Origin: Planctomycetota bacterium
GTDB taxonomy: Bacteria; Planctomycetota; UBA1135; GCA-002686595
Assembly: GCA_041398605.1 (NCBI GenBank)
Contig: JAWKUK010000026.1
Location: forward strand, 1,207 to 65,206
DNA length: 64,000 nucleotides
Reading direction: 5' to 3'
A program made the translations under genes and the position numbers. The notes beneath the pieces were generated by a model. That model saw only the letters and a list, made by a program, of their open reading frames with translations, was not told the origin of the DNA and did no database searches. Numbering within the stretch: position 1 is the first letter of the stretch; each line of letters opens with the position of its first letter. Shown here one piece after another: positions 1,484 to 24,031 of this stretch.

Positions 1484-1561
1484 GGCCCGTTCGTCTAGTC
1501 AGGCCTAGGACACCAGGTTTTCATCCTGGCGACAGGGGTTCGAATCCCCTACGGGTCACCA
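1484..1561 (+). tRNA. tRNA-Glu (anticodon UUC), CCA encoded
   Basis: Cloverleaf read by hand. Acceptor GGCCCGT pairs with ACGGGTC. Anticodon stem is CCAGG/CCTGG with loop TTTTCAT (TTC). T arm is AGGGG-TTCGAAT-CCCCT, followed by discriminator A and CCA. The body closely resembles E. coli tRNA-Glu. Confidence 0.92.
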
Positions 1562-11801: not shown

Positions 11802-12416
11802 TCACGCGTCCGCGAGCAGGTGCGCCGGCAAGTCTGACTCCGCGAGGCGCGCGCGCAGCCGCTGCCAGCGCTTCGCCACGGCCTCAAGCGAGAGGCCGAG
11901 GCGCGGCGCGACCTCCTTGTACGACAGGCCCTCGAGCCCGCAGTGGAGGACGAGCTTCTGCTCTTCCGGCGGCAGGGACGCGACCGTGGCGCGGAAGCGC
12001 GCCAGGCCCTCATCGCGCGCGAGCCGCATCGACACCCCTGTGATGCTGTCGGCGAGCGCGTCGAGGGCGCGCAGCCGCTCGCTGGAGCCGCTGCCAACGC
12101 GCTCGGCGCGCTGGCTCTGCCGCGTGGCCTCCAAGAGCACGTTCTTCGCGATCCTGAAGATCCAGAACCGGAACGGGGTCGACTCGGAGTCAAACCCCTC
12201 CAACTGCCGCCACGCGCGGAACCAGACCTCCTGCACGAGGTCGCCTGGCTCGATCACGGCGCGCTGCTCGGGCCGGATGCGGAGCTCTGCCCAGGTGTGC
12301 AGCGCGGGCGCGATGTGCTCGTAGAGCCGCGCAAAGCCGTCCGCGTCGCCGCCCTGGGCTTCGGACAGCCACTGCGCGGTCACGCCGTCGAGCTCCTCGC
12401 GCGGGGGTCGTTCCAC
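11802..12416 (-). CDS. ECF-type RNA polymerase sigma-70 family factor
   Basis: Region 2 is DLVQEVWFRAWRQLEGFD..FRFWIFRIAKN. Region 4 is LSYKEVAPRLGLSLEAVAKRWQRLRARL. GTG start. No adjacent anti-sigma ORF. Confidence 0.85.
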   Translation of the reverse strand: MERPPREELDGVTAQWLSEAQGGDADGFARLYEHIAPALHTWAELRIRPEQRAVIEPGDLVQEVWFRAWRQLEGFDSESTPFRFWIFRIAKNVLLEATRQSQRAERVGSGSSERLRALDALADSITGVSMRLARDEGLARFRATVASLPPEEQKLVLHCGLEGLSYKEVAPRLGLSLEAVAKRWQRLRARLAESDLPAHLLADA

Positions 12417-12548
12417 GGGGCCATCCTACCCCGTTCCGGCGCACACGCTTGGGCCGACCCCGTTCTGGCGCAAGCGCCTGGACCGCGCCTCGGCAACGTC
12501 GCCGCGGCGTAGGGCCTCGGGAGGCGCGGGGGCTATCCTCGGGGAGGC

Positions 12549-16454
<3,906 letters not shown>

Positions 16455-16486
16455 CCGGAGCCCCGAGATGGGAATCCCTTGCCGGG

Positions 16487-16528
16487 AGTCCAGTGACGGG
16501 AATCCAGTGACGGGAATCCAGTGACGGG
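16487..16528 (+). repeat. 14-bp tandem array x3 (AATCCAGTGACGGG)
   Basis: One variant plus two perfect copies lie in the 233-bp spacer between the kinase gene and the first secreted paralog. A related GGGAATCCC lies at about 16470. Confidence 0.9.
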
Positions 16529-16687
16529 ACGTGTGCAGCGGCTCCCGCGAGCCCGCAGCGGAGAGTCTCGCAGATTTCTGTCCAGGCGCGCCCGGTGGGC
16601 TCACTTGGAAGGGAACACGCAGCGGCCCGTGCAGGCCGTGCGACCCCCTTCGAGACCCGAACCCGCCTCCACGAGGCCCTCCGCGCC

Positions 16688-18451
16688 ATGCAGATCCTTC
16701 GTTCCGCAGCCACGACGTTTGTCGCCGCGCTCGCCCTGCCGCTCCTCGCTGGAGAGGCCTCCGCGCAGACCCGTTACCTCTTCTCGATCGATTGGCAAGG
16801 CGCCACCGTCGGTATGCCGTCGGTCAGCGGCGCGCCGATCACCGAGGGCGACATCCTCGCGCCGAGCACCGGCACCTCGATGCCTGCGCTCGCCGCGCCG
16901 GCGCCGCCGATGATCGCGATCCCGCACGGGCTGGGCGGCCTCGGCCTGGCGACGGGCTGCGCCGGTCACGCGGGCGGCACCCCGTGCAACATCGAGGTCG
17001 ACGCGCTGTCCCGCGGCATCGACTTCCGCTTCCAGCCGAACGTGCCGATCCGTCCTGGTCAGATCCTGTTCTCGGTCGACGAGTACGCGGTCGGGCTGCC
17101 GGCCGGCCCGATGCCGAACGTCGTCAGCGAAGCGCCCTTCGGCGACGGCGCTGCGGACAGCTTCGTCAACCTGGGCCTGATGCCGCCGGCGCCCCTCTCG
17201 CCGATGTTCGGCCGCCACGTCGGCGTGCAGGACGGCGACGGCTTCGCCTCGGGGTCGGGTTACACCTACCCGGGCGTCGGCATCCGCGAGCCGATCGTCG
17301 CGGCGCCGGGCCCGTTCAACGGCGGCGACAACATCGACGCGCTCGACGCCGTCGAGCCGGTCGCTGGAACCACGTTCATCGGGACGTTCTTCAGCCTCGA
17401 CTCGAGCTTCCCCGACTTCATGGACCTCGTGCCGAACACGGGCTCGGCCATCGCGCACGGCTTTGTCGGCGGTGACGTGCTCGTCGCGACGTCCGCCGGG
17501 ACGATGGTCTACGCGCCGGCGACGATGCTCGGCCTCGACCTCATCGGCGGGCCGGACTCCGACGACCTCGACGCGCTGATCCTCGCCGAGACGGGCGCGC
17601 CGGGCTACCAGCCCTCGTTCCAGCCCTACGATTGGATGTCGCCGAACGCGGACATGCTGATCTTCTCGGTGCGCCGCGGCTCGGCCGTCATCGGGATGCC
17701 CGACAGCATGTTCGGCCTGCCGATCCAAGAGGGTGACCTCCTGATCCCGCCGATCCCGACCGCGCTCGGCGGGGTCTCGCCCTTCCCCGCGATCTTCATC
17801 GCCGCGGAGAACCTCGGCCTCTCGACGCTGCGCTTTGCCGGCACCGCCGACGACCTCTGCGCCGCGGACGCCTTGCACCGGCACCTCTTCGACTGCGACG
17901 GGGACGGCGTCGAGGACGCGATCGGCATCGCCGCCTTCGGGGTCGCGGACACGAACATGGACGGGGTGCCGGACTCCTGTGTCTCGGGCCCGGTCGGCAC
18001 GCCGTACTGCTTCTGCACCGCCGCCGCCTCGCCCTGTGGGAACGCGTACGCCCTCGGCGGGTGCCTCAACGCGACCGGCACCGGCGCGGTCCTCTCGGGC
18101 TCGGGTTCGACGAGCGTCGGCGCGGACAACCTCGTGTTGACGACGACGGGGATGAACCCCGGCGGCTTTGCCCTGAGCTTCATGAGCGTCGGGATGGTCG
18201 GTCCGCTGCCGGTCCAGAACGGTCTGCTCTGCGCTGGTCCGAGCATCTGGCGCCTCGGCCTCTACCCGACTGGTCCCGGGACGGCGAGCTTTGGGCCGGG
18301 CCTCGTCGCTCTGACCGCGGGCAACCCGCCGGCTGGCCAGATCACGGCCTTCGCCACCTGGAACTTCCAGACCTGGTACCGCGACCTCGGCGGCCCCTGC
18401 GGCGGCGCCTCGAACTTCTCGAACGCGCTCACGGTGACCTTCGTGCCCTGA
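16688..18451 (+). CDS. secreted protein of unrecognised family, tandem paralog 1 (FSxDWQG/ITEGDIL modules + acidic DxDGxGVxD/NxDGVPDxC motif + C-terminal QxWYRD domain)
   Basis: Start at ATG 16688 with signal peptide MQILRSAATTFVAALALPLLAGEASAQ. Composition is strongly coding-like. It is collinear with the next gene over its whole length. Confidence 0.8.
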   Translation: MQILRSAATTFVAALALPLLAGEASAQTRYLFSIDWQGATVGMPSVSGAPITEGDILAPSTGTSMPALAAPAPPMIAIPHGLGGLGLATGCAGHAGGTPCNIEVDALSRGIDFRFQPNVPIRPGQILFSVDEYAVGLPAGPMPNVVSEAPFGDGAADSFVNLGLMPPAPLSPMFGRHVGVQDGDGFASGSGYTYPGVGIREPIVAAPGPFNGGDNIDALDAVEPVAGTTFIGTFFSLDSSFPDFMDLVPNTGSAIAHGFVGGDVLVATSAGTMVYAPATMLGLDLIGGPDSDDLDALILAETGAPGYQPSFQPYDWMSPNADMLIFSVRRGSAVIGMPDSMFGLPIQEGDLLIPPIPTALGGVSPFPAIFIAAENLGLSTLRFAGTADDLCAADALHRHLFDCDGDGVEDAIGIAAFGVADTNMDGVPDSCVSGPVGTPYCFCTAAASPCGNAYALGGCLNATGTGAVLSGSGSTSVGADNLVLTTTGMNPGGFALSFMSVGMVGPLPVQNGLLCAGPSIWRLGLYPTGPGTASFGPGLVALTAGNPPAGQITAFATWNFQTWYRDLGGPCGGASNFSNALTVTFVP

Positions 18452-18783
18452 GCGGGATGGACGGATCGCAGACCGCCTCACACGGGGCGGGTCGGACCCC
18501 CGCTCGCCCCGGGGTCCACGTGTCCCGCCCGGCGACCCTTCGATGCAGCCCCCAGCGGGGCACGGAGGGCGCCGGGCGGGCGCGTTTCTTCGATTCCCGG
18601 TCCAGAAGCCGGCGGCGCGTGCATTTGGGTGCGGGGGGCCTGCGCCGAGCGAGGCTGTCCATTCCCGAGACGCCTCTCCGCAGCGAAATGGAACCTGGAC
18701 CGCGCTGCGACGCTCCACTTGTGCGCCTTCGAGCGGAGCGGCGCTCGCACCCGTAGACTCGAACAGCCCACCTGCACACTGCC

Positions 18784-20577
18784 ATGCACCGAGCCACCCG
18801 ATCGCGACTCTCGTGCGGCCTGCAAGCCGCCCGCTTCGCTCTCCCTGCCGCGCTGCTCGCGACGCAAGCGAGCGCCCAAGTGCCGACCGAAGTGACGTTC
18901 TCCGTCGACTGGCAAGGACCGTTGATGGGCGTGCAGTCCAGCACCGGCCTGCCGATCACCGAGGCCGACCTGCTGAGCCCGGGTGGCGCGATCTTCAACT
19001 CCGGGACGCCGGGCATCCGCATCCCGGGCGCGTTCCTCTCGCGCTACTCGACCTGTGTCGGCCACGCCCCTGGTGTGTCGTGCGGCGTCGAGCTCGACGC
19101 GCTGTCGTTCGGCAGGGACGCGCGTCTGCGTCCGACGGCCGCGTATCAGTTCGACCTGCTCTTCTCTGTCGACGAGCACGCGGTCGGCGCGCAGGGGCCG
19201 TTCGCGCCCAACGTCGCGACCGAGGCCGCCGCAAACGAGGCGGCGGGCGACGTCTTCATGCGGCGGTTCACCGGCGCGGGTCCGTTCCAGCCCGGCGCAG
19301 GCTTCAACTTCGCGGTCATCGACGGCGACGGACAGCGCAGCACCTCCGGCGCGCTGTATCCGGGGCTCGGGCTCAAGGAGCCGATCCCCGCGACGCCGAC
19401 CGTCCCAGAGCTCGGGGACAACCTCGACGCGTTCGACATCGGGCCGCCGCCGACGGTCGGAACGCGGACGTTCTTCTCGCTCGAGGGTGGCCTGCCCGAC
19501 CCGCGCGAGCCCAACGTCGCGATCACGAACTCGGCCGGCTTGCAGCCGGATCCGAACGGCACGTTGTCGTTCAACGGCGCAGACGTCTTGGTGATCGACA
19601 ACGCCGGCGTCGTGTTCTTGTACGCCTCCTCGGATCAGCTCGGCCTGTCGGGCAACGGCTTCGACGACATCGACGCGCTGATGGTCGTCGAGAACGGCGT
19701 CGCGGGGTATCAGCCCTCCCTCGTGCCGTATGACTGGATCCAAGGCGCTGGCGGCGGCCCGCGCGACCTCGTGCTCTTCTCGGTGCGCCGCGGCTCGGCG
19801 ATCATCGGCATGCTCGACAGCCAGTTCGGGATCCCGATCACGGAGGGTGACATCCTCGGGCCGCCGCTCGGCGGCACGATCGGGCAGCGCCCTTCGATCT
19901 TCATCGCGGCGGAGTCGCTGGGCCTGCAGACGAGCCGCGGCCAGTTCTTCGAGGCCGGCGACGACCTCGACGCGCTCGACATGCGCGATGACACCGAGGA
20001 GCCGTTCAAGGACTGCAACGAGAACGGCGTCGAGGACGGCCTCGAGGTGTCGAGTGGGAGCTCGCCCGACATCGACGGCAACGGCGTGCCCGACGAGTGC
20101 GAGTCGGCAGGCGAGGCGTTCTGCGACTGCGACACCGCGGCGGAGGCGGCGTGTGGGAACATCTCCGTGACGGGCCGTGGGTGCGTCAACAACACGGGGG
20201 TCGGCGCGCGCCTGATCGGCACGGGGACGAGCTCGGTCGCGACGGACGCGCTGAAGCTGACCGCCTCTTCGATGACCCCGAACACCTTCGGCGTCGTGTT
20301 CATGGGGATGACGGCGGGGTCGGCTGTGCCGCCGTTCAGCAACGGCCGCGTGTGCGTCGGCGGCTCGACCCGGATCAAGATCGCGCCGACAGGCCCGACG
20401 GGCTCCTTCGACTACGGCCCTGGCATCCTCGCGGATATCTCGCTCTTGCCTTTGCCGCCTGTGGTCACGCCTGGCTCGACGTGGGGCTTCCAGGTTTGGT
20501 ACCGAGACATCGGCGGCCCGTGCATCGGCGGCGTCTCGAACTTCACCAACGCGTGGCGCGTGCTGTACACGCCTTGA
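18784..20577 (+). CDS. secreted protein of unrecognised family, tandem paralog 2
   Basis: Signal peptide ends ...LLATQASAQ. It shares with paralog 1 the motifs FSVDWQG, PITEADLL, FSVDEHAVG, GDNLDAFD, DDIDALM, PYDW, LFSVRRGSAIIGMLDSQFGIPITEGDILGPP, IFIAAESLGL, DCNENGVEDG..DIDGNGVPDEC and FQVWYRDIGGPC..SNF. Confidence 0.8.
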   Translation: MHRATRSRLSCGLQAARFALPAALLATQASAQVPTEVTFSVDWQGPLMGVQSSTGLPITEADLLSPGGAIFNSGTPGIRIPGAFLSRYSTCVGHAPGVSCGVELDALSFGRDARLRPTAAYQFDLLFSVDEHAVGAQGPFAPNVATEAAANEAAGDVFMRRFTGAGPFQPGAGFNFAVIDGDGQRSTSGALYPGLGLKEPIPATPTVPELGDNLDAFDIGPPPTVGTRTFFSLEGGLPDPREPNVAITNSAGLQPDPNGTLSFNGADVLVIDNAGVVFLYASSDQLGLSGNGFDDIDALMVVENGVAGYQPSLVPYDWIQGAGGGPRDLVLFSVRRGSAIIGMLDSQFGIPITEGDILGPPLGGTIGQRPSIFIAAESLGLQTSRGQFFEAGDDLDALDMRDDTEEPFKDCNENGVEDGLEVSSGSSPDIDGNGVPDECESAGEAFCDCDTAAEAACGNISVTGRGCVNNTGVGARLIGTGTSSVATDALKLTASSMTPNTFGVVFMGMTAGSAVPPFSNGRVCVGGSTRIKIAPTGPTGSFDYGPGILADISLLPLPPVVTPGSTWGFQVWYRDIGGPCIGGVSNFTNAWRVLYTP

Positions 20578-20637: not shown

Positions 20638-21699
20638 TCACAAGAGGCGGCGCAGCGCGGCGACTGCGGCGTCGATGTCAGCGGCCGTGACGTCCAGGTG
20701 GGTCACGAGGCGCAGGCGCGCGCCGCCGGTGCACAGGACGCCCGCGGCCGCCAGGCGCTCGACGGCGCCCGGGGCCTCGAGTGGACCCCTGTCCGACACC
20801 TTGTCTGGGTCGAGCTCGACGAAGACGATGTTCGTCTCGGGCGGTTGCACGCGCACGCCAGGCAGCCCTTGCAGCCCGTCGGCCAGCGCGCGGGCGTTGG
20901 CATGGTCGAGCGCGAGCCGCTCCACGTGGTGGTCGAGCGCGTACAGCGCCGCCGCTGCGAGGACGCCGGCTTGGCGCAGCCCTCCGCCGACCATCTTGCG
21001 GATGCGCTGAGCGCGCCCGATGAGCTGGCGCGTGCCGACGAGGGCTGAGCCGATCGGCGCGCCGAGGCCCTTGCTGAAGCACACGGAGACGCTGTCGAAG
21101 TGGCTCGCGATGCGCGCCGCCGCTGCGAACGGGTCGCCGCCGCTGGCGACGGCCGCATTGAAGAGGCGCGCGCCATCGAGGTGCGTCGCGAGCCCAGCGC
21201 GGCGCGCGAGGGCGGTCGCGTCTTCGATGTAGTCGAGCGGCAGGACGTGGCCGCCCCAGGTGTTCTCGAGCGTCAAGAGCCGCGTGCGCGCGTAGTGCGG
21301 GTCGTCGGGCTTGATCGCGGCTTGGATGTCTGCGAGCGGGATCGAGCCGTCGGGCGCCTGGGTGAGCGGCTGCGGTTGGATGCTGCCGAGCACCGCGGCC
21401 CCGCCGCCTTCCCACCGATAGGTGTGCGCCATCTGACCGACGAGGTACTCGTCGCCGCGCTCGCAGTGCGCCATCAGCGCGCAGAGGTTGCTCTGTGTGC
21501 CGCTCGGCACGAAGAGCGCGGCCTCCTTGCCGAACAGCGCGGCGACGCGCGCTTGGAGCGCGTTGACCGTCGGGTCATCGCCAAAGACGTCGTCGCCGAC
21601 TTGGGCCGCCGCCATCGCGGCGCGCATCCCGGCGGTCGGGCGCGTGACGGTGTCGCTGCGGAGGTCGATCACGGTGGGGGGCGGCGCGAGAGGGGACAC
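20638..21699 (-). CDS. ltaE: low-specificity L-threonine aldolase
   Basis: Motifs [45 protein letters not shown] (PLP Lys) and GGGLRQAG. The start is uncertain. GTG 21699 gives a typical length, while the track ORF extends to ATG 21792. Confidence 0.85.
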
Positions 21700-22094
21700 C
21701 CGGCCGAGTGTAGCGGTCGAGCAGCCGCGGCGCGCCGCCTGGCGTCGCGCGCCGGCCTCGCCGCGCGCCGGCCTCGCGGTGCGCTGGCCCATCTCGGTGG
21801 TCCCGCTCGGTCGCGCGGTCGGGGAGGCCCGCGTGTCACGTTGCAGTGTGGCGGTCAGGGCCCGAGCGGACCGGGGCCGGCGGCGAGGTGTGGCCGTGGG
21901 CGCTCGAGCAGACGTGCATGACCGCCCCCGAGCTGCCCGCGATCACCCTCCATCGCTCCCAAATCAAAGCGCTTGCCAACGGCCCTGCGTCGACCCTGCG
22001 TCGGCGCACCCGTCGTCCTCGAGCGCGCAACTGGAGCGCGCGGCGGGCATCACGGTCCAGGGAGCCGCTACACTCCGCGCCCTAGGGCCTCCGT

Positions 22095-23219
22095 TTGACC
22101 GAATCTACACTCCCTGCGCGCGGCGCGCCCCGCGCACGCGCGTCCGCCCCGCCCTCCGTGGTGCTCCCGCTCGCGCTGCTCGCCGCGCTCGTGGCGCTGC
22201 TCGCGTGCGCGACGCTGCAGGTCGGCAGCGGCGTCGGCGTGACGCTCTCGTTCTCCAGCGTCGCGCGAGGCTTGCGCGCGTGGATCGGCGCTGGCGCGCC
22301 GCTCGAGGGCGCCCTGCAGGTGCTCTTCGAGCAGCGCCTCGTCGACACCGCAGCGGCCGCGCTCGTCGGCGCTGGGCTCGCGCTCTCGGGCGGGCTCTTG
22401 CAAGGCGTCTTTCGCAACGACCTCGCGTCGCCCGGGTTGCTCGGGATCAGCTCCGGCGCGACGCTCGGCGCGGCGGCAGGGGTGATCCTGATCGGCGGCG
22501 GGCTCGGCGGCGCCGAGGCGCTCGGTGTAGCGGGCTTGTTCGGCCCGGCGCTCGTCTCGAGCTTGGCCTTCATCGGCGCCCTGGCCGTCTCTGGCCTCGT
22601 GATGCTGCTCGGCACGCGCGGCGGCCGGATCTCCGTGCCGACGCTGCTCTTGCTCGGCGTCGCGGCCAACGCGTGCCTCGGGGGCGTCCTGGCAGCGCTG
22701 CAAGAGGTGCTCTTCGAAGAGGACTACGAGCTCTCGCGGGCCGTCTTCTCATGGACCTTCGGCAACCTCGCGGACCGGACCTATGGGCAGGTCATGACGC
22801 TCCTCATGCTGATACCACTGGCCGCCCTCGTGGTGCCCTTCGTCGGCCGTGAGCTCGACTTGATCGCCGGCGGTGAAGAGGACGCGGAGTCGCTCGGCGT
22901 CGACACGCGCCGCATGAAGCTGCTCGCGGTCGGCGGCGCTTCGCTCGCGGCGGCGGCGGCGGTCGCAGTCGCGGGCCAGATCGCGTTTGTGGGCCTCGTC
23001 GTGCCGCACATCCTGCGCGGCGCGCTCGGGCACTCGCACCCGCGGCTCTTGCTCGCGTGTGTCCTGGGCGGGGCGGCGTTCCTCCTCGGCGCAGACCTCG
23101 TCAATCACTCGCTCCTCGGAGCGCGCGCGCTGCGCCCCGGCGTGATGCTGTCGCTGATCGGCGGGCCGTTCTTCCTCGCGCTGGTCCTGCGCAGGCGGGC
23201 GGAGGTGCGGACTTGGTAG
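22095..23219 (+). CDS. FecCD/BtuC-family iron-chelate (or cobalamin) ABC transporter permease
   Basis: Multi-TM protein. Motifs [54 protein letters not shown] and GGPFFL. TTG start. Confidence 0.82.
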
Positions 23220-24031
23220 CCCTGGTCGTGCGCGGCCTCGAGTTCGCCTATCCGGGCGGCGCGCCGGTCCTCTGCGGCGTCGACCTCGACGTGCGCGCGG
23301 GGGAGGTCGTCTGCCTCATCGGCCCGAACGGCGCGGGCAAGAGCACGCTCCTGCGGCTCTGCGCGGGCCTCATCGAGCCGACCGCGGGCACGGTCTCGTT
23401 CGCAGGTCAGCCGCTGCGCGACCTGCCCTTGCGCGCGAGGGCGCAGCGCATTGGCGTCGTGCCGCAGGCGCTCCGCGCGCTGCCGGCGATGCGCGTACGC
23501 GACTTCATCGCGCAGGGTCGCTACGCGCATCGCGCGCGCTTCGCGCGGTCGACGCCCGCGGACCACGCGGCGATCGAGCGCGCCCTCGACGAGGCCGACA
23601 TTCGCGCGTTCGCCGAGCGCCCGCTCGAGGAGCTCTCGGGCGGCCAGCGCCAGCGCGCGCTCGTCGCGCGCGCGTTGGCCCAGGAGCCCGAGCTCGTCCT
23701 CGTCGACGAGCCGACAAACGCGCTCGATCCGCGCCACCAATTGCAGGTCTTCGGGCTCGTCGCCGGGCTCGGCTGCCGCGGCCGCGCGGCGCTCGCGATC
23801 ACGCACGACCTGAACCTCGCGAGCCAATTTGCCACGCGCATCGCGCTGCTGGACGCGGGCCGGATCGTCGCCGACGGCAGCGTGCACGAGGTCCTGCGGG
23901 CGGACGTGCTCGAGCCCGTCTATCGCACGCGCTTTGAGACGGGAGCGGCCCCCGTCGCCGGCTGGGGCGAGCCGCGGCCGTGGGTGCTGCCCTGGGACGC
24001 GCCCGCGCGTCCCGACGTCACTCGGCCGTGA
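23213..24031 (+). CDS. ABC transporter ATP-binding protein (FecE/BtuD-like)
   Basis: Walker A is GPNGAGKST, the signature is LSGGQRQR, and Walker B is LVLVDEPT. The start is uncertain: TTG 23213 overlaps the permease stop, and GTG 23228 is an alternative. Confidence 0.82.
   Translation: MVALVVRGLEFAYPGGAPVLCGVDLDVRAGEVVCLIGPNGAGKSTLLRLCAGLIEPTAGTVSFAGQPLRDLPLRARAQRIGVVPQALRALPAMRVRDFIAQGRYAHRARFARSTPADHAAIERALDEADIRAFAERPLEELSGGQRQRALVARALAQEPELVLVDEPTNALDPRHQLQVFGLVAGLGCRGRAALAITHDLNLASQFATRIALLDAGRIVADGSVHEVLRADVLEPVYRTRFETGAAPVAGWGEPRPWVLPWDAPARPDVTRP

Follow-up and report, generated by a model that had tools for sequence, protein, structure and literature searches.

A 64,000-nucleotide stretch of a Planctomycetota genome assembly (GCA_041398605.1, contig JAWKUK010000026.1; hereafter, the window) contains two adjacent and similarly oriented genes, termed here par1 and par2, that encode exported proteins of a family not previously recognised. 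Each protein presents an N-terminal domain, the head, that consists of four serial copies of a single unit, followed by a Cys-clamped acidic loop segment and a Cys-rich C-terminal domain that together comprise an interchangeable cassette. Upstream of the pair lie genes encoding a Ser/Thr kinase bearing WD40 propellers and, divergently oriented, an extracytoplasmic function (ECF) sigma factor, in an arrangement that is conserved in other loci. Of the explanations considered for the whole, the best, assigned a rough probability of 0.42, is that par1 and par2 are Sec-exported binding proteins of the cell envelope or surface that are tied to the ECF/kinase pathway.

The par1 and par2 genes and their products

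The proteins encoded by par1 and par2 align from end to end (43% identity; E=8e-120), such that the original prediction of collinear tandem paralogs of 587 and 597 residues, based on the sequence of the window, held true, coordinates included. The motifs listed there, namely, FS[IV]DWQG, PITE[GA]D[IL]L, DALS, LFSVDE, LFSVRRGSA[VI]IGM, IFIAAE.LGL and the DC..DG...GVPD.C segments, were likewise all found. Both proteins appear in public records derived from a Planctomycetota metagenome-assembled genome (MAG) as the hypothetical proteins R3F49_22510 and R3F49_22515. The par1 open reading frame (ORF) is open back to a GTG codon at position 16595, with the 587-residue form also being that found in the public annotation. 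In the window, which has a G+C content of ~72%, the G+C content at third codon positions (GC3) reaches 0.93 in par1 and 0.91 in par2, as compared with 0.53-0.65 when the same strand is read in its two other frames. The long antisense ORFs at 16601..18718 (-) and 18478..19743 (-) are best explained as high-GC artefacts.

Tandem pairs of family genes were also found in six other loci (L002, L009, L032, L033, L085 and L086). Because the pairs of the nearer relatives have a par1-like gene upstream and a par2-like gene downstream, the duplication is taken to be old and to have been retained.

Examination of the N-termini of both proteins revealed a basic stretch, a hydrophobic core and the residues A-S-A ahead of the predicted cleavage site, in agreement with the earlier assignment of signal peptides to the two. 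As such, the features associated with Sec-mediated export and cleavage by signal peptidase I, i.e., a basic region, a hydrophobic core, an A-x-A motif and no lipobox, can all be read from the sequence. Moreover, an xAxAQ pattern ahead of FSxD is kept in the family consensus, and C11 of par2 is neither conserved nor part of any lipobox. In the AlphaFold2 (AF2) model of par2 considered below, the signal peptide was assigned a predicted local distance difference test (pLDDT) score of about 50 and includes a helix at residues 20-29. Mature par1 and par2 have an isoelectric point of about 4.05 and contain 47-64 acidic residues, 15% Gly, 8-10% Pro, 10-11 Cys and 0-4 Lys, with ten Cys being invariant in the family alignment. 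In par1, there is not a single Lys across 561 mature residues.

The head consists of four serial repeats

The original prediction described an internal module present twice in each protein. Repetition far beyond chance was indeed detected, yet it involves four serial copies rather than two. When segments of an alignment of 67 family members (A1; par2 numbering is used throughout) were compared profile to profile with hhalign, the first repeat (R1; residues 33-112) and the fourth (R4; 322-403) were matched with 97% probability (E=1e-11; 71 columns), while the third (R3; 225-306) was matched to R4 with 95% probability (E=5.7e-8). The second repeat (R2; 118-222) was matched to R3 at E=3e-4, with only the ordered motifs FSVDE, GDVF and GDNLDAFD aligning when R2 was compared with R1 or R4. 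The head is thus made up of four copies of one unit, with R2 being a degenerate copy. Each unit spans ~70-100 residues, contains four main beta-strands in the AF2 model and offers, in order, the motifs FSxD (at F39, F127, F231 and F332), [GA]D[ILV][LF] (at D62, D156, D267 and D356), xxLGL and D[DN][LI]DA[LF] (around 103-107, 212-217, 294-299 and 392-397). In the last repeat of par1 (DDLCAADAL; 17865..17885), Cys replaces the central Asp of the DDLDALD motif. This residue, the eleventh and unpaired Cys of par1, reflects a variant of the par1 lineage that is also seen, as DDLCALD, in the par1-like gene of locus L002 (8020..9765).

Searches for relatives of the head in characterised families were unsuccessful, and the description of the family as unrecognised stood. 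Neither par1 nor par2 matched a Pfam or NCBIfam model at E<=1, and searching Pfam with the 67 members at E<=10 returned only six unrelated singletons and nothing consistent. The sole match in a sequence-profile search of the PDB (E=1) was rejected as spurious. Alignment-based AF2 modeling of full-length par2 gave a pLDDT of 91.9 and a predicted template modeling (pTM) score of 0.86, with these values being 94.8 and 0.94, respectively, for the head alone (residues 33-408). When the full-length model was compared with the PDB using Foldseek, the only matches were to FN3/Ig-type beta-sandwiches over ~115-135 columns (the PelI N-terminal domain, LILRB and AA9), and these are attributed to the C-terminal domain. 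When the head alone was compared, nothing below E=0.48 was obtained from the PDB, where the best template modeling (TM) score (0.18) was to six-bladed propellers, while BFVD offered no match below E=0.4. Across the PDB and the viral models of BFVD, to which the absence of a structural neighbor applies, and across the profile searches, nothing placed the N-terminal region in a characterised family.

The organisation of the head was further addressed by covariation, calculated as mutual information with average product correction (MI-APC) on the variable columns of 344 sequences (effective number, 295). Mean-field direct coupling analysis of 346 sequences was discarded, as conserved-column and gap artefacts dominated. 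As a sanity check, MI-APC ranked the pair formed by C91 and C100, both invariant, first. Contacts were obtained within repeats (331-357, 357-398, 228-270, 123-160 and 158-175), between the DAL strands of different repeats (218-399, 300-400 and 109-220) and between DAL and FSxD positions, whether within one repeat or across two (38-109, 301-330, 37/38-220 and 107/109-229). These contacts, together with the pTM of 0.94, point to a single compact domain, with the four DAL strands brought together at its core. At the level of contacts rather than topology, this is reminiscent of a closed structure of pseudo-four-fold, propeller-like character; as no propeller superposes, the head is not classed as such.

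An interchangeable C-terminal cassette

The acidic segment that follows the head had been likened to Ca2+-binding loops of the DxDxDG/thrombospondin type-3 (TSP_3) or dockerin kind. The segment fits the EF-hand loop pattern twice (positions 1, 3, 5, 9 and 12 being D, N/D, N, D and E/D, respectively) and resembles such loops, whereas the thresholds of the Dockerin_1, TSP_3 and EF-hand models were not reached. The loops of par1 gave sub-threshold Pfam matches to EF-hand_5 (E=0.094) and TSP_3 (E=0.24; 11.6 bits vs. a cutoff of 25), the isolated loop segment of par2 gave no Pfam match, and Dockerin_1 (PF00404) was not matched by par1 or par2 at E<=1, by the 67 members at E<=10 or by the isolated segments. 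In the 67-member alignment, D410, C411, D418, D429, P436, D437 and C439 are invariant, with N412, N414, G415, N433 and G434 being at least 90% conserved. The AF2 model includes a helix (418-424) after loop 1 and a short helix (437-439) at the end of loop 2.

A Cys-rich C-terminal domain of ~150 residues is present in both proteins, as had been reported. This description can now be refined, in that the domain and the loops together form a cassette common to otherwise unrelated exoproteins, with only the N-terminal ~370 residues being specific to the family. Residues ~409-597 match the extreme C-terminus of unrelated proteins, with the match being protein-terminal in 10 of the 10 cases that could be read. 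Carriers include proteins with Peptidase_S8 (L062), glucose/sorbosone dehydrogenase (GSDH; L053), legume lectin plus GSDH (L048) and FG-GAP (L046, L050 and L051) domains, a TSP_3 protein (L049), an unassigned 730-residue protein (L041) and two giant proteins of ~2160-2180 residues (L044, 520..7011; L047, 457..7011). A word-indexed search with the cassette as query returned seven proteins only, a number due to the word index. The head, in turn, takes alternative tails. PEP-CTERM directly follows one head (second half of P0241) or two serial heads (P0185), dockerin-like C-termini follow the heads of P0180, P0212 and P0257, and in P0187 and P0211, the head is found together with FG-GAP propellers, P_proprotein and Dockerin_1.

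The ~30-residue loop module on its own is far more widely distributed, occurring in Phycisphaerae, Verrucomicrobiota, Latescibacterota, TA06 and Poseidoniales archaea, and can precede true dockerins (L055). The giant proteins of L044 and L047 begin with short QQ[VFA]DAISREFT[IL] repeats and hold long arrays of ~110-residue repeats, as well as TSP3-like CPxDPxK repeats. The par1-like gene of L002 noted above encodes a C-terminal subtype that does not contain CxC...PCGN...GC and that keeps NSTG and the terminal FQxW[HY]RD...SNF; at least two or three subtypes of the C-terminal domain, exchanged between orthologs, are thus indicated.

Distribution of the family

When par1 served as phmmer query against 1.84 billion cluster representatives, 3503 proteins were matched at E<=1e-3, 259 of these at E<=1e-30. 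Word-indexed searches revealed hundreds of proteins of ~580-610 residues with no Pfam domain, with every named one being annotated as hypothetical or uncharacterised. The named sources were nearly all Planctomycetota MAGs, of marine, lake, groundwater or soil origin, together with a few bins labelled Bacteroidota, Chlamydiales or just 'bacterium'. In species-representative genomes, full-length matches were confined to contigs labelled Planctomycetota and to unclassified MAGs that are named 'uncultured bacterium'. An apparent match to the head in an Ignavibacteria MAG (L055) was rejected, as it involves just the Ca2+-loop module, with a true dockerin behind it, such that this match does not place the head outside Planctomycetota. 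The family was seen only in Planctomycetota. Several family loci can belong to one genome, and the cultured 'Planctomycetes bacterium Poly30' contains at least three copies (Poly30_09770, Poly30_42140 and P0096). This strain corresponds to Saltatorellus ferox, a member of a genus that forms large aggregates and undergoes changes in shape (10.1101/817700). No description of the family was found in the literature.

About a third of the family loci adjoin an ECF sigma factor gene and a WD40 kinase gene

Clustering of the ORFs in 38 family loci revealed one recurrent neighbor, a gene encoding a Ser/Thr kinase of 1200-1350 residues. In 11 loci, the kinase gene lies directly upstream of the family gene and on the same strand. 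The order ECF sigma factor gene (-), kinase gene (+), family gene (+) was seen in the window and in L004, L005, L006, L007, L012, L014, L018, L027, L032 and L085; in L009, the kinase gene is at the edge of the locus and in L003, it is found 5 kb upstream. Between loci, identity is 46-65% for the sigma factors, 52-64% for the kinase domains and 41-51% for the family proteins. Given that just five of these loci share synteny over a broader region (RecJ), the three-gene unit is conserved beyond general gene order. Genes encoding carbohydrate-active enzymes (CAZymes) or transporters were not among the conserved neighbors of the family loci.

Besides a Pkinase domain and WD40 propellers, the kinase of the window contains a coiled-coil-like stretch and a hydrophobic segment that is predicted to be its one transmembrane helix, near residue 410-430 (WAATIGVSAIALVVGLAASLV), after RRWCRR. 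Its WD40 ectodomain (13869..16451), the presumed sensor part, is 25-32% identical to those of L004-L032 and thus diverges much faster than the kinase domain. ECF groups linked to kinases are known, planctomycetal ones included (PMC7826278), and the WD40 arrays of kinases from the Saltatorellus clade are predicted to be periplasmic (PMC11032199).

Downstream of par2 lie sequences encoding a pyridoxal phosphate-dependent enzyme similar to beta-eliminating lyases and threonine aldolases (20638..21792, -; Pfam E=1.6e-101), a FecCD-type permease (22095..23219) and an ABC ATPase (23057..24031), the last two being assigned from synteny. L003 and L085, the annotation of which includes the FecCD and ABC genes, have a Peripla_BP_2 gene in place of that for the lyase. 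This is synteny of an ordinary kind and does not evidently bear on the family. A tRNA-Glu gene (anticodon TTC; 1484..1561) is the only Rfam or ARAGORN match in the window.

Table 1. Positions in the window of par1, par2, their parts and associated elements.
Feature	Position	Strand	Description
ECF sigma factor gene	11802..12416	-	204 residues; divergent from the kinase gene; Sigma70_ECF (E=1.4e-15), Sigma70_r2, Sigma70_r4_2
Ser/Thr kinase gene	12549..16454	+	1301 residues; Pkinase at residues 99-370; C-terminal WD40/beta-propeller families (Pfam)
14-bp tandem repeat	16470..16529		4.3 copies of GGGAATCCAGTGAC; Tandem Repeats Finder score 92, 89% matches
par1	16688..18451	+	587 residues from ATG; public annotation, hypothetical protein R3F49_22510; P0261
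par1 signal peptide	16688..16765	+	residues 1-26, MQILRSAATTFVAALALPLLAGEASA, before Q; cleavage site predicted by eye
par1 four-repeat N-domain	16769..17887	+	collinear with the par2 N-domain; 800 database proteins at E<=1e-3
par1 Cys-clamped double acidic loop	17891..17980	+	DCDGDGVEDA...DTNMDGVPDSC
par1 Cys-rich C-terminal domain	17981..18448	+	46% identical to that of par2; no Pfam match at E<=10
Terminator-like hairpin and T-rich tail	18569..18593	+	par1-par2 gap; consensus scan, 1 site vs. 1.4 expected in shuffles
ECF promoter-like element	18690..18714	+	GGAACC-N15-CGCT; 70-95 nt upstream of par2 ATG; one mismatch to GGAACC-N15/16-CGTC
par2	18784..20577	+	597 residues; public annotation, hypothetical protein R3F49_22515; P0001
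par2 signal peptide	18784..18876	+	residues 1-31, MHRATRSRLSCGLQAARFALPAALLATQASA, before Q; cleavage site predicted by eye
par2 R1	18889..19113	+	residues 36-110; FSVD, ADLL, C91-C100, ELDALS
par2 R2	19147..19443	+	residues 122-220; FSVDE, GDVF, DGDG, GDNLDAFD; most diverged copy
par2 R3	19468..19689	+	residues 229-302; FFSLE, ADVL, YASSDQLGL, DDIDAL
par2 R4	19768..19986	+	residues 329-401; LFSVRRGSAIIG, EGDIL, IFIAAESLGL, DDLDALD; best conserved copy
par2 Cys-clamped pair of EF-hand-like loops	20011..20103	+	D410-C411...C439-E440
par2 Cys-rich beta-sandwich	20104..20574	+	six invariant Cys; ends FQVWYRD...SNFTNA..V.YTP

Intergenic elements

A 14-bp tandem repeat (Table 1) lies within the 234 bp that separate the kinase gene from par1. 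The possibility that this is a regulatory array was dropped, as neither L085 nor L086 has the repeat in its orthologous intergenic region. The hairpin found between par1 and par2 is within chance expectation and offers weak evidence for a terminator. A scan for sigma-70 promoters returned no sites. In the case of par2, GGAACCTGG of the ECF promoter-like element is kept in L086 and not in L085. Considering the family as a whole, the motif G[GA]AAC-N15-18-CGT[CT] was found on the coding strand upstream of 7 of 45 family genes, as compared with 1.65 expected from the background rate. The sites lie 146-219 nt before the mature N-terminus and 50-110 nt before the ATG, with six of the seven reading GGAACC-N15/16-CGTC and that of L029 reading GGAACG-N14-CGTC. 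The motif is not tied to the sigma factor encoded in the window.

The regions between the ECF sigma factor and kinase genes are short, i.e., ~1-130 bp (12417..12548 in the window; also L004, L005, L007, L012, L014, L018 and L027), and contain conserved TAnnnT boxes near both start codons, these being TAGGAT or TAGCAT next to the ECF sigma factor gene and TAGAAT, TAGACT or GACAAT next to the kinase gene. The position of these boxes suggests leaderless or near-leaderless transcription of the signalling pair by the housekeeping machinery. A similar box, TAGACT, is contained in CCGTAGACTCGAAC (18740..18760), which lies ~30 nt upstream of the par2 ATG and is kept in L086. This may be a housekeeping-type -10 element that competes with or adds to the ECF-like element. 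Taken together, these regulatory hints are only suggestive.

Possible roles of par1 and par2

In the explanation favored here, par1 and par2, an anciently duplicated pair of Sec-exported and very acidic proteins, would be located at the envelope or surface and would probably be stabilised by disulfide bonds and by Ca2+ held in the acidic loops. The first module, a compact all-beta head of ~370 residues, would be the family-specific, functional part and would bind a ligand, in the manner of a lectin or adhesin, rather than act as an enzyme. The second module is predicted to be a disulfide-clamped pair of EF-hand/dockerin-like Ca2+ loops and the third, a beta-sandwich of ~150 residues with three probable disulfides. 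Given how PEP-CTERM or dockerin-type tails are used elsewhere, the head may be viewed as exchangeable cargo, with the second and third modules being a putative shared means of keeping proteins at the cell surface or of bringing them there. The genes form a conserved unit with the divergent ECF sigma factor gene and the gene for a membrane kinase, the WD40 propellers of which would face the periplasm. The par1 and par2 proteins would have their place in the envelope signalling of the ECF sigma factor and kinase, the simplest possibility being that they are the output that it regulates.

Several observations weigh against this explanation. About two thirds of the family loci are not beside an ECF/kinase pair. 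The ECF-type motif is absent upstream of par1, is present upstream of par2 only in a one-mismatch version and is absent from the ECF-kinase intergenic regions, where it was sought as a sign of autoregulation, while the motif sites of L009 and L010 are near-identical and so not independent. The closed four-fold arrangement of the head is based on covariation and repeat order only. Finally, the head contains invariant acidic residues (D62, E103, D156, D180, E199, D215, D295, D328, D356 and D393) that, with R335 and W318, could equally form a catalytic site, and the cassette might serve to bind carbohydrate instead of acting as an anchor.

These last points lead to the alternative, considered unlikely, that the head is a new secreted enzyme, such as a polysaccharide lyase or hydrolase or a peptidase, that is targeted by a cassette resembling a carbohydrate-binding module or a dockerin-type module. 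Planctomycetes are known as glycan degraders, and real enzymes, i.e., the Peptidase_S8 and GSDH proteins, carry the same cassette. Moreover, the fusion of the head to P_proprotein and Dockerin_1 in P0187 and P0211 is of a kind common in secreted hydrolases, and Y280 can be added to R335, W318 and the many invariant acidic residues. Still, no likeness to an enzyme fold or family was detected by Pfam, NCBIfam, PDB profile or Foldseek searches, the head contains no conserved His, Ser-His-Asp or metal-binding motif, and FSxD, GDIL and DAL recur at equivalent positions of the repeats, as is more typical of structural or Ca2+-binding repeats. Nearby CAZyme or transporter genes, moreover, are not conserved. 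A role somewhat less probable than this is that of an extracytoplasmic input to the kinase, whereby par1 and par2, as surface or periplasmic receptors, would activate the ECF sigma factor by docking on the WD40 ectodomain, in analogy to FecA-FecR-FecI. The order of the three genes has been kept even as the partners diverged to 41-65% identity, and the rapid divergence of the WD40 ectodomain (25-32%, as opposed to 52-64% for the kinase domain) is expected of a partner-specific interface. The ectodomain and the exported proteins would, furthermore, both be found in the periplasm or envelope (PMC11032199), and the apparent use by the ECF and kinase genes of TAnnnT -10 boxes of the housekeeping type, in place of an autoregulated ECF promoter, fits post-translational activation (PMC7826278). 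Against such an input role stand the many family genes found away from a kinase gene and the several paralogs per genome, with the ECF-type motifs before some family genes fitting an output role at least as well.

The least probable of the alternatives considered holds that par1 and par2 are abundant structural proteins of a coat or aggregation matrix, akin to S-layer proteins or acting in cell-cell adhesion, with no specific small ligand. The presence of several paralogs of near-constant length per genome and an acidic, Gly/Pro-rich and almost Lys-free composition are compatible with such a role, as are the Ca2+-type loops, these being common in S-layer and matrix proteins. The tandem pairs could, in addition, mean hetero-oligomers, and Saltatorellus both aggregates and changes shape (10.1101/817700). 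Yet the head is also found inside large multi-domain proteins with FG-GAP propellers, which would be unusual for a lattice protein.

Comparison with known systems

The acidic loops of the family resemble those of dockerin I, EF-hand and TSP_3 proteins in offering two 12-residue loops in succession, each with Asp or Asn at positions 1, 3, 5 and 9 and with Glu or Asp at position 12. A short helix follows the first loop in the AF2 model, and in relatives, the Cys-bracketed loops adjoin genuine TSP_3 or Dockerin_1 matches. The family segment differs in remaining below the Pfam thresholds, in comprising only ~30 residues and in presenting one presumed disulfide clamp (C411-C439). We know of no cohesin partner for these loops.

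Like the C-terminal domain (CTD) of type IX secretion system (T9SS) substrates and like PEP-CTERM, the cassette ends unrelated exoproteins of one clade (10/10 cases). The FN3/Ig-like Foldseek matches suggest that, like the T9SS CTD, it includes a small beta-sandwich, while PEP-CTERM can replace the cassette behind the family head. Unlike the T9SS CTD, the cassette is larger (~150 residues plus the loops) and Cys-rich, and no match to Por_Secre_tail/TIGR04183 or to any other Pfam or NCBIfam sorting domain was obtained. The NCBIfam 'choice-of-anchor' families likewise combine one N-terminal extracellular domain with alternative C-termini (here, the Cys-rich cassette, PEP-CTERM or dockerin-like), and neither these nor any other NCBIfam model was matched.

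The head shares with the hemopexin-like four-bladed propeller four serial repeats, each of about four predicted beta-strands, as well as recurring D-A-[LF] strands that, according to covariation, contact one another. In hemopexin domains, inner DAA strands line the channel, and the DAL strands may be likened to these. The repeats of the family are, however, about twice as long, no match to Pfam Hemopexin was obtained with the 67 members at E<=10, and the best Foldseek superpositions of the head on propellers gave TM scores of 0.15-0.18 at E>=1, with no hemopexin domain among the 50 matches listed.

As in kinase-linked ECF modules (ECF43, ECF59-62 and related groups), an ECF sigma factor gene lies beside a Ser/Thr kinase gene (PMC7826278), and as in kinases of the Saltatorellus clade (PMC11032199), the kinase of the window carries a C-terminal WD40 array. 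In a targeted literature search, no description was found of kinase-linked ECF modules that include a conserved third gene of this secreted family. Both the cassette and the three-gene unit thus appear to be undescribed. At the same time, undescribed secreted families are common in Planctomycetota.

Significance

The proteins considered here comprise three envelope building blocks, i.e., the head, the loop module and the C-terminal domain, for which Pfam-A and NCBIfam contain no models and which belong to poorly understood planctomycetes that shift shape and form aggregates. With a confident prediction and no PDB neighbor, the head represents a good target for structure determination and for the definition of a new family. 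The cassette marks a set of exoproteins, including proteases, dehydrogenases, lectins and integrin-like proteins, and may reveal how proteins are sorted to or anchored at the surface in this clade. The link to the ECF sigma factor and WD40 kinase offers a candidate partner or target for one of the many orphan kinases of planctomycetes, and a role in signalling is testable in cultured Saltatorellus ferox Poly30, with its family genes. The importance of these findings would rise were the cassette a sorting signal or the head the surface receptor of the kinase. That both should apply in Planctomycetota of the Saltatorellus clade, with the cassette being a new sorting or surface-attachment signal in the role played by the T9SS CTD in Bacteroidota and the head being the receptor, of a new fold, in a pathway that would run from surface protein to WD40 kinase to ECF sigma factor and would parallel FecA-FecR-FecI signalling while using unrelated parts, is an improbable outcome.

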